From Bacteroidota bacterium (GTDB lineage: Bacteria; Bacteroidota; Bacteroidia; Chitinophagales; Chitinophagaceae), in contig JAFDXE010000014.1 of assembly GCA_018268085.1 (NCBI GenBank), positions 8,140-72,139 on the forward strand: a stretch of 64,000 bases of DNA, given 5' to 3'. Below the pieces are notes generated by a model. The model was not told where the DNA came from, did not search any database, and saw nothing but the letters and a program-made list of their open reading frames with translations. The translations under genes were made by a program, and so were the position numbers. Shown in pieces: positions 38,945 to 43,149 of the stretch. Every line of letters begins with the position of its first letter. Within the stretch, counting starts at the first letter, position 1.

Positions 38945-40378
38945 TTAGCCTGCAGTATCGCTTATAGCAGGTGAGTCTGATTTTTCATTTTTCTTACTCT
39001 TAAACAAATCGTCTACATCGATTGAGATACCTGCCTGTATTTGTAAGAAATTATTGTAAAATCGAACAGGCTCATTGCTTCTTTGATAAATAGTTTCGCC
39101 TGTATTGGATGTTCTTTTGCGAACAGGGAAGTATTTTCCTGTCTGATACATCCAGCTTCCACGTAAATAAGCGAAGTGATCTTTATCGGTTCCGATATTT
39201 TTTATTAACCTAAAAGAAAACATATAAACAGGTTTTACTTTTTTTGTTGGATAGCTTACAGGCAGGAGCATTGAAGCTCGTTCATAGGGATCTATAACTG
39301 CAGCATCATATTGTTTGTAGTAGCTATCATGTAGGTACAGCCACATAATTCCAACATTGAAGTCCAGATTTAGTCTTGCTTTTTCTACAAATAACGTTTT
39401 CCCATATAATTCAATATTGTAAGCCATTGAATAAGCAGGCCTGAAAATTGACGAATCCGTTTTTCCAGTTTGGGATAAAGAAGTATCTACAAACGGACGG
39501 TTCTTGATCAATTTTGCGCCTGCCTGTAAATGCACTCTAAAATTATCTTTTTTAACAGCGAGCAAAATAATACGGGCACCAATATGAAGGTTTGAATATT
39601 TCCAGATATCCATGGTTGTAAACTTCGGTGTGGCGCTATCCGGATTTGATGAGCCATACAGATAGGCAGGGTAATTGTATGTTTCTTCTTTCTGGCTTTT
39701 GTCTATACGGTTAAAAAGTATGTCTGGAAAAATGATTGAACGAAATAATTGGGCAGACCAACTATTTTCTTTTCCAAAGGCATTTTTATTCAACGCCCAT
39801 TTACATCTTAGTTCGGTTTGTAATCTTCCATTTGGCTTGTCGTTATCGAATCCGGCAAAATCAGTAAATTGATTGTATTCTATTTTGTTGGTATTTGAAA
39901 CATCTTTAAACCATTTCGCCTTGTTCTTGTTAGAAACAGTAGTAACAGAAGGTGCAGTAGATGCAATAAGAGTAGAAGAAGTAATTGTAATAGTATCTAA
40001 TCTGTGAATAATTGTATCATCATTTAGTTCAAGCCTGAAATGTAATATTATCGTTTCATCGTTTGATGCTGGTCTAACAGGAAAATTTAAGGTTAACGTA
40101 AAATTACCATTGAGGCTAAGATTGGAAGGATTAGTTATGGACGTTATCGAGTAATTTCTCGGATCTGCAGTTCCTGAATTATCGTTGTAGAAATTTGCGT
40201 TTGTAATAGATGCTGCCGGGCATCCTGTAACAAAAAATATAAACGGATTAACAGTTAATGTAGTTCCTGCTGCACCTCGAATAATTTTCTTTTGTGCTGG
40301 ATTTAAACAAATTGTTTGATTAAATCCCTGACCGGCTATATGAATAAGTAATATTGATAAAAATAGTTTTGTCTTCAT
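38945..40378 (-). CDS. Hypothetical secreted protein; N-terminal Ig-like region and putative C-terminal beta-barrel
   Basis: Signal peptide MKTKLFLSILLIHIAGQG; Thr/Asn-rich beta N-terminus, S/T linker, amphipathic aromatic strands; AT-rich. Confidence 0.7.
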   Translation of the reverse strand: MKTKLFLSILLIHIAGQGFNQTICLNPAQKKIIRGAAGTTLTVNPFIFFVTGCPAASITNANFYNDNSGTADPRNYSITSITNPSNLSLNGNFTLTLNFPVRPASNDETIILHFRLELNDDTIIHRLDTITITSSTLIASTAPSVTTVSNKNKAKWFKDVSNTNKIEYNQFTDFAGFDNDKPNGRLQTELRCKWALNKNAFGKENSWSAQLFRSIIFPDILFNRIDKSQKEETYNYPAYLYGSSNPDSATPKFTTMDIWKYSNLHIGARIILLAVKKDNFRVHLQAGAKLIKNRPFVDTSLSQTGKTDSSIFRPAYSMAYNIELYGKTLFVEKARLNLDFNVGIMWLYLHDSYYKQYDAAVIDPYERASMLLPVSYPTKKVKPVYMFSFRLIKNIGTDKDHFAYLRGSWMYQTGKYFPVRKRTSNTGETIYQRSNEPVRFYNNFLQIQAGISIDVDDLFKSKKNEKSDSPAISDTAG

Positions 40379-40400
40379 AAAATTTATTTTTGTGTGTTAA

Positions 40401-40408
40401 CAAACGTA
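40401..40408 (-). promoter_or_regulatory. -7 element (TACGTTTG) upstream of the 477-aa gene
   Basis: Exact TAnnTTTG match on the minus strand 22 nt upstream of the ATG. Confidence 0.55.
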
Positions 40409-40564
40409 AATATCCACTACAAAAAAAGTTCAAGGAAAAAGGATGAAAAGGGGTAGGTGTTTTTCCGGTATTTTTTGTTTTAAATACCTGATTTTGATTA
40501 TTTGCATTGAAAATTAAAGTCTGAAAAGTATTTTGGGTAATTATCGAACATTAAACTATAAAAA

Positions 40565-41056
40565 ATGAAGTCAATTATTTTCTTATCTGTCTTTTTCCTT
40601 GTTGTTTCCCAGATATCCTGTACAACAAATTCCAATCAGGATAGCCGTGTGGTTCACGATACCGTGTATGTAAAAGTTCCTGATACGGCTGGCATAAAAA
40701 CTTTTAATGATAAAGCTTACAATGCAGTTGTACTATGGGAAGATTTTAAAACTGATTCAATAGAATACGAAAATTTGAAGAAGAAGTGCCCTGATTTGGC
40801 AAATTCCAAAACTGTCGCAGTAAGGTATGATATTGCAGCACTAAAAGGTTACCTCGATTTATTACAAAGATTAAGTTATAAGAATATCGACGTTTTTATT
40901 GGAAGATATCCAGACAGGTCAACATATCCAGGTACCGGCACAATAATATCCCCAGATCACAGTGGTCGTTTAACAGTGTTATTTGCCGGCGAAGGTATGT
41001 CGAAAGAAGTAACGCCTAATATATTGCCGTATAATGTAGGAAATCCCTGGCCTTAA
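40565..41056 (+). CDS. Hypothetical lipoprotein, first gene of the signalling cassette
   Basis: Signal peptide with lipobox-like QISC (Cys19); C-terminus YNVGNPWP; stop 2 nt before the next ATG. Confidence 0.75.
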   Translation: MKSIIFLSVFFLVVSQISCTTNSNQDSRVVHDTVYVKVPDTAGIKTFNDKAYNAVVLWEDFKTDSIEYENLKKKCPDLANSKTVAVRYDIAALKGYLDLLQRLSYKNIDVFIGRYPDRSTYPGTGTIISPDHSGRLTVLFAGEGMSKEVTPNILPYNVGNPWP

Positions 41057-41058
41057 AG

Positions 41059-41706
41059 ATGCAGTTCATTCCAATCATCTCAGAATCTGTTGCTCTTTTG
41101 GCTGCAATATTATTTTGTGGCCAAAAGAACATTTTTAAATATTTTATTCCATTTTTAGTTTACACTTTACTTAATGAGTCTGTTGCATTTTATATGGGCT
41201 ATATAATGAGAACAAAAAATTATTTTCTTTATACTATTTATGTTCCCATTTCTTTTTGTTTTTATTCCTTTATTATCAGTGCTAAAGTAATAAACATAAA
41301 ACTTGTTAAGTTCGTTCGGGCAACAACTTATTTTTGCTTCCCTTTTTTTTTATGGAATATATTATTTATTCAGGGCTTTAATTCATTTAACACTTATTCA
41401 AATACACTTGTTTCTCTTGTACTGATACTATTCTCCTTAATTTATCTATTTGATTATTTAAATTATTCTCAAGAAAAATCAAATCCCATTACGGAACCGA
41501 TGTTTTGGATCGTTGCAGGTTTGCTATTCTTTTATTTTGGAGGAATGATTTTAAATATTCTCTACAATTATTCTGTTCAACAGGAATTTAAAATAAACGA
41601 AAAAAAAATGTATAGTTTTGTTTTTGCTTTTTTGAATATTCTGTTATATGGATGCCTCAGTATAGCTTTTTACTTATGTTGCAAAAGAACGAAGTATATA
41701 TACTAA
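41059..41706 (+). CDS. Seven-TM membrane protein of unknown function
   Basis: Seven hydrophobic segments by eye (approx. aa 3-20, 28-49, 55-75, 85-104, 113-134, 148-169, 185-207); FWIVAGLLFFY; basic C-tail. Confidence 0.78.
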   Translation: MQFIPIISESVALLAAILFCGQKNIFKYFIPFLVYTLLNESVAFYMGYIMRTKNYFLYTIYVPISFCFYSFIISAKVINIKLVKFVRATTYFCFPFFLWNILFIQGFNSFNTYSNTLVSLVLILFSLIYLFDYLNYSQEKSNPITEPMFWIVAGLLFFYFGGMILNILYNYSVQQEFKINEKKMYSFVFAFLNILLYGCLSIAFYLCCKRTKYIY

Positions 41707-42470
41707 TTATAGTTGCTTCTGTTGTTTTCCTGTTGGTTGCTTTCTTTCTATTTATATTTGTTTTGTACTTTTTTAAAAAACGTCGACAAATGTTTTTGGA
41801 AAGGGAACTAATTAAAAAGGAATACAATGAAAACCTTCTTCAATCCCAAATCGAAATCCAGGAACAAACACTTCGCCATGTAAGTCATGAACTTCATGAT
41901 AACCTCGGGCAAATTGCCAGCCTGATCAAAATCAATCTCAATACACTAAACCTGGATGACAGCAGTAAGGCAATACAAAAAATTGAAGACACCAAAACTC
42001 TAACCCGCCAGTTAATCTCAGATCTTAAAAGTTTATCCGTCGGTCTTGGCAGTGACCATCTATCTAAAACAGGAGTTATAAAAGCACTTGAAATAGAAAT
42101 TGAAAGGTTAAATAAAACCGGGCAGTTTACTGCAACTTTTAGTAATGATGCAGGAGATATACATATACCTGCAGATAAAGCCATTATCCTTTACCGTATG
42201 GTTCAGGAAATTTTAAATAATTGTATCAAGCATGCTAATGCAAAAAATATAGATCTGCATTTGCAGCATCACAATCAGGAAAATAAATATATATTAGCAA
42301 TCAGGGACGATGGTGTAGGCTTTAGTATACAGGATTCCGGATCAGATACAAGTGCAGGATTAAAAAATCTTCACAACCGGGCTCAATTGATTAATGCCAA
42401 TTTGAACTTTTACAGCACTCCAGGTAAAGGCACAGAAGTAATCATCAGCATTCCTGATACTATAAACTAA
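41676..42470 (+). CDS. HisKA_3-type sensor histidine kinase with one TM helix and no sensor domain
   Basis: H-box SHELHDNLGQ, N-box YRMVQEILNNCIKHA, DDGVGF, GKGT; ATG 41676 overlaps the 7TM gene by 31 nt. Confidence 0.9.
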   Translation: MLQKNEVYILIIVASVVFLLVAFFLFIFVLYFFKKRRQMFLERELIKKEYNENLLQSQIEIQEQTLRHVSHELHDNLGQIASLIKINLNTLNLDDSSKAIQKIEDTKTLTRQLISDLKSLSVGLGSDHLSKTGVIKALEIEIERLNKTGQFTATFSNDAGDIHIPADKAIILYRMVQEILNNCIKHANAKNIDLHLQHHNQENKYILAIRDDGVGFSIQDSGSDTSAGLKNLHNRAQLINANLNFYSTPGKGTEVIISIPDTIN

Positions 42471-42480
42471 ATTCCTGTTT

Positions 42481-43149
42481 ATGACTGCTGCTGAACAACC
42501 AAAAATAGCCCTGGTTGACGATCACAGGTTGTTCCGTAAAGGATTGATAAGCCTGATAGAAATGTTGTATCCTGATTGTGTTATTGTTTTTGAGGCTGAT
42601 AACGGATACGATCTCCAGAAAAAAATAGACAAGCTAAACCAACCCGATCTTATACTGATGGATGTAAACATGCCGGGTATGGATGGTTTTGATACCGTAA
42701 CATGGCTCAATACCAATTATCCGCTGGTTAAAGTACTTGCCGTAAGTATGATTGAAAGAGAGGAAAGCATAGTAAAAATGCTCAAGCTAGGTGTAAAAGG
42801 TTATTTGAGTAAAGACGTTGAGCCTAAAGAACTGGGCGAAGCCATTCATGCCGTATTAAATAAAGGTTTTTATTATACAGATTTCATAACCGGTAAACTG
42901 GTACATTCTCTCCAAACAGGCAATAACGATTCTTTGAAGGCTGAAAGCCTTTCATTGATTAGTGAAAGAGAAATGGAATTCCTGAAGATGGCATGCAGCG
43001 AAATGACTTACAATGAAATTGCAGCCAGGATGTTTTTAAGCCCCAAAACAATAGATGGATATAGAAATTCCCTGTTCGAAAAATTACAAATAAAAAGCAG
43101 GGTGGGCCTGGCACTTTATGCAGTAAAAAATGGAATAGTAACGTTGTAA
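42481..43149 (+). CDS. NarL/LuxR-family DNA-binding response regulator
   Basis: Receiver LVDDH...MDVNMPGMDG...GYLSK; LuxR HTH SERE...EIAARMFLSPKTIDGYR. Confidence 0.93.
   Translation: MTAAEQPKIALVDDHRLFRKGLISLIEMLYPDCVIVFEADNGYDLQKKIDKLNQPDLILMDVNMPGMDGFDTVTWLNTNYPLVKVLAVSMIEREESIVKMLKLGVKGYLSKDVEPKELGEAIHAVLNKGFYYTDFITGKLVHSLQTGNNDSLKAESLSLISEREMEFLKMACSEMTYNEIAARMFLSPKTIDGYRNSLFEKLQIKSRVGLALYAVKNGIVTL

Follow-up and report, generated by a model that had tools for sequence, protein, structure and literature searches.

A seven-helix membrane protein encoded in overlap with a one-helix histidine kinase: a probable non-covalent receptor-kinase sensor in Bacteroidota

Introduction

Many histidine kinases lack an input domain, and for most of them the actual sensor is unknown. 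In the LiaFSR and VraTSR systems of Firmicutes, as in BceS-BceAB and GraS-VraG, such an input-less kinase needs a membrane protein that is encoded next to it (PMC3543457; 10.1101/2020.02.28.969956; PMC7951975). Here we describe a locus of a Bacteroidota bacterium (assembly GCA_018268085.1, contig JAFDXE010000014.1, positions 8,140 to 72,139 of the forward strand; this whole stretch of 64,000 nucleotides is called the window) in which a seven-helix membrane (7TM) protein of an uncatalogued family is encoded in overlap with an input-less histidine kinase that has a single membrane helix.

Other described systems are close to this locus in other respects. Sensory rhodopsin II (SRII) is a stand-alone seven-helix receptor which makes lateral helix contacts to its transducer HtrII in a 2:2 complex and controls a histidine kinase (PMC3274258, PMC12917780). 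In BtsS, pyruvate is bound in a 7TM domain (PMC10653868). At the ComQXPA pherotype loci the sensor part and the genes upstream of it are hypervariable, while the cytoplasmic part of the kinase and the regulator are conserved (PMC4008528, PMC4408185). For the locus described here, comparative analysis suggests that the 7TM protein and the one-helix kinase probably form a non-covalent receptor-kinase sensor within a four-gene signalling cassette. The 7TM family is tied to one-helix kinases of two classes by gene order, topology and joint exchange, and it offers a candidate type of receptor that would act in trans via helix-helix contacts.

Results

Four close-set genes on the + strand of the window (40565-43149) encode, in this order, an accessory protein (X), the 7TM protein, the kinase and a response regulator, according to the list of open reading frames (ORFs). 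The distances between them are 2, −31 and 10 nucleotides (nt) in turn. The features of the cassette are as follows:

40565..41056, + strand: accessory protein X, 163 residues, with a lipoprotein-like signal (Cys19) and the C-terminus LPYNVGNPWP
41059..41706, + strand: 7TM protein, 215 residues, predicted N-out/C-in, of an uncatalogued family; proposed input module
41676..41706, + strand: overlap of the 7TM and kinase genes, 31 nt, with the favoured kinase start within the final 7TM codons, in frame +2
41676..41852, + strand: variable N-terminal segment of the kinase (tail MLQKNEVY, membrane helix, KKRR, juxtamembrane helix)
about 41700-41774, + strand: kinase membrane helix, part of the variable N-terminal segment
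41775-41786, + strand: KKRR of the kinase, directly after the membrane helix
41853..42470, + strand: conserved core of the kinase (EIQEQTL helix, H-box, and HisKA_3 and HATPase_c as found with Pfam)
about 41877-42050, + strand: HisKA_3 (Pfam)
41895-41897, + strand: histidine of the H-box (His74), in the kinase core
about 42180-42461, + strand: HATPase_c (Pfam)
42481..43149, + strand: NarL/LuxR-type response regulator, Response_reg plus GerE (Pfam)

The kinase frame offers two start codons, ATG 41652 and ATG 41676, and ends at 42470. As homologous kinases begin with MLQK(E/Q)EVY, the comparison favours ATG 41676, which would give a protein of 264 residues and the overlap of 31 nt; ATG 41652 would give an overlap of 55 nt. 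From the favoured start, the kinase consists of an 8-residue tail (MLQKNEVY), about 25 hydrophobic residues, KKRR, about 35 residues and the ELHDN H-box. A Pfam scan identified HisKA_3 (PF07730; E-value 4e-5, 24.5 bits against a cut-off of 24) and HATPase_c (PF02518; E-value 5e-12), but no PAS, Cache or periplasmic domain, and the membrane helix runs into the DHp helix without a HAMP domain. The kinase of the window and 52 homologues have a single hydrophobic segment each. Across these 52 N-termini the tail has a median length of 7 residues and contains an acidic residue in 47 cases; the mean number of lysines plus arginines (K+R) is 0.52 ahead of the helix and 3.81 in the 10 residues past it. 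Because K+R is low ahead of the helix and high past it, the kinase is predicted to be N-out/C-in, with a cytoplasmic C-terminus. The recorded gene call (P0160, 226 residues) starts at a methionine past the membrane helix, and the membrane anchor is hence missing from the annotation; this start was probably placed late to avoid the overlap with the 7TM gene. The automatic annotation thereby conceals the one-helix architecture of the kinase. The regulator matched PF00072 (1e-24) and PF00196 (3e-13) in Pfam, and its top NCBIfam match was NarL, under the cut-off.

AlphaFold2, run with 90 homologues, modelled the 7TM protein as seven helices with high confidence (predicted local distance difference test, pLDDT, 94.6; predicted template modelling score, pTM, 0.90), at residues 4-19, 25-49, 55-76, 80-104, 112-136, 147-175 and 184-211. 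The family means of K+R, from the N-tail through the successive loops to the C-tail, were 0.26, 2.77, 1.11, 2.50, 0.66, 1.66, 1.96 and 2.81. In sum, loops 1-2, 3-4 and 5-6 together with the C-tail carry 9.7 such residues vs 4.0 elsewhere, and because of this enrichment the counts indicate an N-out/C-in topology. The best-conserved residues of the family are polar or aromatic (E9, E40 (91%), N54, N59, N100, Q105, N193 and Y197 (98%)) and lie in the outer helix halves, judged from their position along the helices; the 7TM protein of the window has T at position 59, where the family has N. F149/W150 are conserved at the inner end of helix 6, and the conserved residues of helix 7 are L192, N193, L196, Y197, F204 and C207, with no lysine among them. 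The gene contains a run of nine A (41602-41610, in loop 6-7), at which no frameshift occurs; a programmed −1 frameshift at this run was considered and rejected, as the kinase frame is closed until 41616 (stop codon at 41613-41615).

Pfam and NCBIfam scans of the 7TM protein and of X gave no match, and a comparison of the 7TM family profile with PDB sequences gave none either. When 90 family members were scanned against Pfam (E ≤ 1), none matched a relevant model: 42 families were matched, none of the 25 listed was hit by more than 2 members, and 7TMR-DISM (PF07695), HisKA_7TM (PF16927) and 5TMR-LYT (PF07694) were missing from these 25. A Foldseek search with the 7TM model returned matches to G-protein-coupled receptors (GPCRs) alone, all non-significant (E ≥ 0.18, template modelling score ≤ 0.52), and no family was assigned on the basis of the fold. 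The homologues are labelled 'hypothetical protein' in their source records.

A preliminary description of the locus had placed the kinase start at ATG 41676 within the last codons of the 7TM gene, in agreement with the ORF list (7TM gene at 41059..41706, 215 residues). It had also described a kinase with one membrane helix, KKRR and a helix leading to the H-box, as read here in the N-terminal sequence, and without PAS, Cache or periplasmic domain, as HisKA_3 and HATPase_c are the only Pfam matches. Its seven helices recur in the AlphaFold2 model, and its cytoplasmic C-termini of both proteins are supported by the K+R counts of the 7TM family and the 52 kinase N-termini. Only the kinase tail, given there as 5-6 residues, has to be corrected to 8.

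To return to the family as a whole, a search of 1.84 billion representative proteins yielded 579 clusters of 7TM homologues at E ≤ 0.001, and every one of the best 150 has 79-233 residues. By profile search, the family was detected in 87 of 401 genomes of the phylum and in 57 of 179 genera, often in multiple copies (up to 7 per genome), and all open frames listed for it in these genomes have 166-304 residues. Carriers of family members include Flavobacterium johnsoniae and Chitinophaga pinensis. The 38 top-scoring loci are without exception ordered 7TM, kinase and usually regulator, with the kinase ATG mostly 22-43 nt ahead of the end of the 7TM stop codon. The 40 lower-ranked loci divide into 26 with the same short kinase, 12 with a long one and 2 with none; a one-helix kinase lies directly downstream of the 7TM gene in 38/38 of the top loci and 38/40 of the lower-ranked ones. 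Taking 96 7TM genes, about 79 have a one-helix kinase directly 3', with a median overlap of 22 nt (22-25 nt depending on the locus set). With about 70 independent loci showing the overlap, the arrangement is, judged from gene order, far beyond chance. A reverse search that started from kinase homologues led in 3 of 3 cases to an overlapping upstream gene of 215-219 residues without a Pfam match. No fused 7TM-kinase was found among the best 150 of the 579 clusters or at about 150 genomic places. The absence of fusions would be explained by topology, because the 7TM protein is predicted to end inside while the kinase helix must start outside, and an end-to-end join would yield a periplasmic kinase. 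At two loci (L037, L005) the kinase is in the frame of the 7TM gene and only the stop codon, or the stop codon plus one codon, stands between them.

The pairing is also seen within the genome from which the window comes. It contains 41 kinase-like frames, and the 5 7TM paralogues precede exactly the 5 of them that are short and sensor-less. Besides the cassette of the window these are C33:21781-24333, C22:30035-32614 and, near each other, C54:71624-73762 and C54:75142-77280; additional NarL-type regulators lie between and next to the latter two, which are without X. Elsewhere in the phylum, the 7TM family overlaps an unrelated class of kinase, 1TM-PAS-PAS-HisKA(PF00512)-HATPase_c, some with an additional receiver domain. 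Overlaps of 8-52 nt with such PAS kinases of 520-684 residues were found at L054-L056, L060, L071, L074, L075, L078, L081 and L087. As nothing but the short acidic tail and the single helix is common to the two kinase classes, this helix is the likely contact point with the 7TM protein. At L043, L044, L046 and L047, one kinase is preceded by two or three 7TM genes in tandem, and X-7TM modules without a nearby kinase occur at L045 (two tandem 7TM genes, with a prolyl-tRNA synthetase gene next on the opposite strand) and as the first X-7TM copy of L044. A 1:1 ratio of 7TM protein to kinase is therefore common but not obligatory. The many paralogues and the tandem genes would fit a diversified ligand specificity.

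Comparison with a syntenic locus (L040) revealed very uneven conservation. From the acyltransferase (61% identity), identity falls to 27% in X, 17% in the 7TM protein and 33% in residues 1-53 of the kinase (P0162), while it amounts to 74% in the kinase core, 80% in the regulator, 81% in a Lactamase_B-rhodanese protein and 91% in a helix-turn-helix protein (HTH_5/ArsR-type). A strain-level allele (P0161) has a kinase core 100% identical and an N-terminus 26% identical to that of the window. It is carried by two metagenomic contigs (L089, L090), assembled from two runs of one study, and most contigs with the window allele come from this study as well. Their DNA is unalignable with the window before 41830 and shows five mismatches at 41833-41852, and L089 has 0 mismatches from 41853 to 42719. 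Where the core is closest to that of the window (71-100%), the kinase N-terminus is 26-33% identical; conversely, it is 68-75% identical where the core is only 58-62% identical, and the kinases of this second group that were checked adjoin the closest 7TM relatives. At L104, for example, identity to the window is 42% for X, 54% for the 7TM protein, 75% for the kinase N-terminus, 58% for the core and 75% for the regulator. Because the identities of N-terminus and core decouple at 41830-41853, these alignments show X, the 7TM protein and the first ~55 residues of the kinase to be inherited and exchanged as one unit, apart from the core and the regulator. In the aligned DNA, the exchange junction is at the EIQEQTL motif (window 41830-41853).

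A same-strand gene coding for 117-310 residues precedes the 7TM gene in 36 of the 38 loci. By phmmer, 26 of the X proteins were linked to a family, which the X of the window joined by jackhmmer (E-value 5e-11). This link was obtained by starting jackhmmer from other members; a single-query jackhmmer from the X of the window found nothing, and a word-based search only X itself. The family shares the motifs GxRxYFG, TxxxVPT and, at the C-terminus, NxGxxxP. The C-terminal motif can be written [FLY]-[ND]-x-G-x-x-x-P, is often followed by P-x-x-C, and is preceded by a variable low-complexity linker. The AlphaFold2 model of X, of moderate confidence (pLDDT 73), has an alpha/beta core in which the C-terminal motif forms a sheet strand; no relative of X was found in Pfam, in PDB or by a fold search with the model. 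Two tandem X genes are present at L002 and L042. Judged from its recurring position, the X gene belongs to the 7TM-kinase cassette as its third conserved member.

Upstream of X the following features were found:

38945..40378, − strand: divergent secreted protein, 477 residues (ORF without Pfam match)
40379..40564, no strand: spacer of 186 bp between the divergent gene and the cassette, AT-rich (25% guanine plus cytosine, G+C)

The divergent protein shows 23-26% identity to the product of the same-position gene in L040 and L104, against 61-91% in the outer flanks. It lies within the variable island, and its membership in the signalling system is uncertain. Contigs of a strain that is 99.2-99.5% identical end at 38968-39320; these are contig ends and give no left boundary of the island. 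Because of the short distances between the downstream genes, the spacer is the sole space for a promoter of the cassette and is common to the divergent gene; TAnnTTTG-like elements start in it at 40385 (+) and 40408 (−). A further match to the Bacteroidota −7 consensus TAnnTTTG, TAGTTTTG at 41613-41620, is located inside the 7TM gene, 63 nt 5' of the kinase ATG, and may be a chance product of AT-rich sequence. The G+C content of the 7TM gene and the first 52 kinase codons (41059-41831) is 26-27%, that of the kinase core and the regulator 37-38%, and that of the window 39.6%. The low value may stem from hydrophobic codon usage, from a foreign origin of the cassette, or from both.

Discussion

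In the sensor that we propose, the 7TM protein would be the receptor, probably for a small molecule that binds to a polar pocket in the outer half of the helix bundle (E9, E40, N54, N59, N100, N193, Y197). It would pack sideways on the single helix of the kinase, probably in a 2:2 complex. A shift of this helix could reach His74 by way of an uninterrupted helix of about 40 residues, where it would set the balance between kinase and phosphatase activity and thereby the phosphorylation of the regulator. The gene overlap would give coupled synthesis, so that the partners insert together, and X, a putative periplasmic lipoprotein at the window locus, might modulate or present the signal. The preliminary description had already proposed that the 7TM protein and the kinase are functionally coupled, which the 5/5 pairing, the two kinase classes and the joint replacement support. 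Its eight-helix sensor likewise gains comparative support, but such a unit would be a protomer, since histidine kinases dimerise. Its 1:1 stoichiometry does not hold as a general rule, as a single kinase is accompanied by two or three tandem 7TM genes at some loci.

Several observations weigh against the proposed sensor. The label 'receptor' is based on context and not on fold, because the Foldseek matches to GPCRs are non-significant, and the case for contact between receptor and kinase is a comparative one. Over 67 distant pairs, the Spearman correlation between 7TM and kinase N-terminal identity was 0.29, and 0.17 as a partial correlation given the core; as this global correlation is weak, the co-variation argument rests on the close comparisons. 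At some loci a gap of 120-300 nt takes the place of the overlap, and a few 7TM genes stand without a neighbouring kinase (L045, the first copy of L044, L065, L069). A signal peptide or anchor is found in about 15 X proteins and lacking in about 21.

The layout could alternatively result from one fused receptor-kinase gene that a sequencing error or a recent or programmed frameshift has split in two, in line with the two frames being one base apart and with the run of nine A at 41602-41610. Slippage at this run, however, hits a stop, as the kinase frame does not open before 41616. Over the junction or the region just downstream, five independent Logan contigs match the window at 99.9-100% identity, with 100% through the junction itself, and the family profile aligns up to residue 214 of the 215 of the 7TM protein, that is, to its final residues. 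On these alignments an indel at the 7TM/kinase junction is excluded. Furthermore, the genes are split in about 79 loci with overlaps of varying length, no fused homologue was found in the clusters and genomic places named above, and by the charge counts the kinase part of a fusion would be periplasmic. The preliminary description had listed both a frameshift error and natural 7TM-HisKA_3 fusions as points to be checked; the search returned no fusion, and contigs, profile and the recurring split dispose of the error. We consider the probability of a broken fusion to be close to nil.

A more serious alternative, though still an unlikely one, is that the 7TM protein does contact the kinase, but as a LiaF-like inhibitor or scaffold that is released by perturbation of the membrane or envelope, and not as a ligand receptor. 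LiaF/LiaS and VraT/VraS are precedents for an upstream-encoded membrane protein that controls a sensor-less HisKA_3 kinase (PMC3543457; 10.1101/2025.01.23.634444), and adjacency, overlap and co-variation would fit such a regulator too. Yet 5-7 diverged copies per genome would be unexpected for a general stress sensor, as would the replacement of a hypervariable cassette between near-identical strains; the conserved polar residues in the outer helix halves suggest a binding site, and Pfam revealed no sequence relation of the 7TM protein to LiaF. It is also conceivable, but distinctly less probable, that the kinase helix alone senses the bilayer in the manner of minimal DesK, for which one chimeric membrane helix suffices for thermosensing (reviewed in PMC6879721), and that the 7TM protein is a co-expressed transporter or enzyme without physical coupling. 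The direct entry of the kinase helix into the DHp helix without HAMP and the few 7TM genes that lack a kinase agree with this. It leaves unexplained, however, why helix and 7TM protein are exchanged jointly on an identical core, why the overlap occurs with two unrelated kinase classes, and why the 5/5 pairing in the own genome is exact; moreover, the 7TM protein matches no transporter or enzyme family in Pfam, NCBIfam or PDB. Because of the many paralogues, the joint exchange and the two kinase classes, the LiaF-like and the DesK-like explanations are less compatible with the data than a receptor-kinase sensor.

For the sensor with the 7TM protein as receptor, a further and rather doubtful possibility is that Bacteroidota use the cassette for strain-specific communication or recognition, with a function analogous to that of the ComQXP and Agr pherotypes. 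The signal, specific for the cognate 7TM allele, would then be supplied by X or a C-terminal product of it, recombination would take place at EIQEQTL, and the separate receptor would let receptor and helix swap while the core stays untouched. An allele swap on an identical backbone is a mark of strain-specific signalling in Bacillus and Staphylococcus. Our literature search, the coverage of which is incomplete so that earlier descriptions are possible, found neither a comparable swap described for Bacteroidota nor a description of the 7TM family or its arrangement. The family is present in about a fifth of the sampled genomes of the phylum and has no entry in Pfam, NCBIfam or PDB.

Compared with the known systems, the locus resembles LiaFSR and VraTSR in its parts: the HisKA_3-type kinase lacks an input domain, its neighbouring gene encodes a separate membrane protein, and the regulator is of the NarL type. 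Those kinases, however, have two membrane helices with a short outside loop, while the kinase of the window has one. LiaF, VraT and BceB are unrelated to the 7TM family (neither the 7TM protein nor X has a Pfam or NCBIfam match), and the phylum differs. In the literature examined, the behaviour of a hypervariable cassette is not described for LiaFSR or VraTSR. With SRII-HtrII the locus shares a separate seven-helix protein that is proposed to signal laterally to a membrane-anchored partner. HtrII has two helices and acts on CheA via a chemoreceptor-like domain, whereas here the partner would be the kinase itself, and the 7TM protein has neither a rhodopsin match nor the conserved, retinal-binding lysine of helix 7. 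In the fused 7TM receptor kinases (BtsS/LytS type, 7TMR-DISM, HisKA_7TM), a seven-helix domain likewise provides the input to a kinase, but these are single chains of unrelated families in which helix 7 continues into the cytoplasmic domains.

From ComQXPA the locus differs in that ComP has 8-10 membrane helices fused to the kinase, while here the membrane part is largely a separate protein. No ComQ-like prenyltransferase or short ComX-like precursor was found at the cassette, and no processing enzyme was recognised. Unlike ComX, X is a folded protein of 117-310 residues, and it is the only signal candidate in the cassette. The kinase with HisKA_3 and HATPase_c and the regulator with REC and GerE are, on the other hand, of the same domain types as those of ComQXPA, and the pattern of polymorphism is that of the ComQXPA and Agr pherotypes, with the breakpoint inside the kinase gene (41830-41853).

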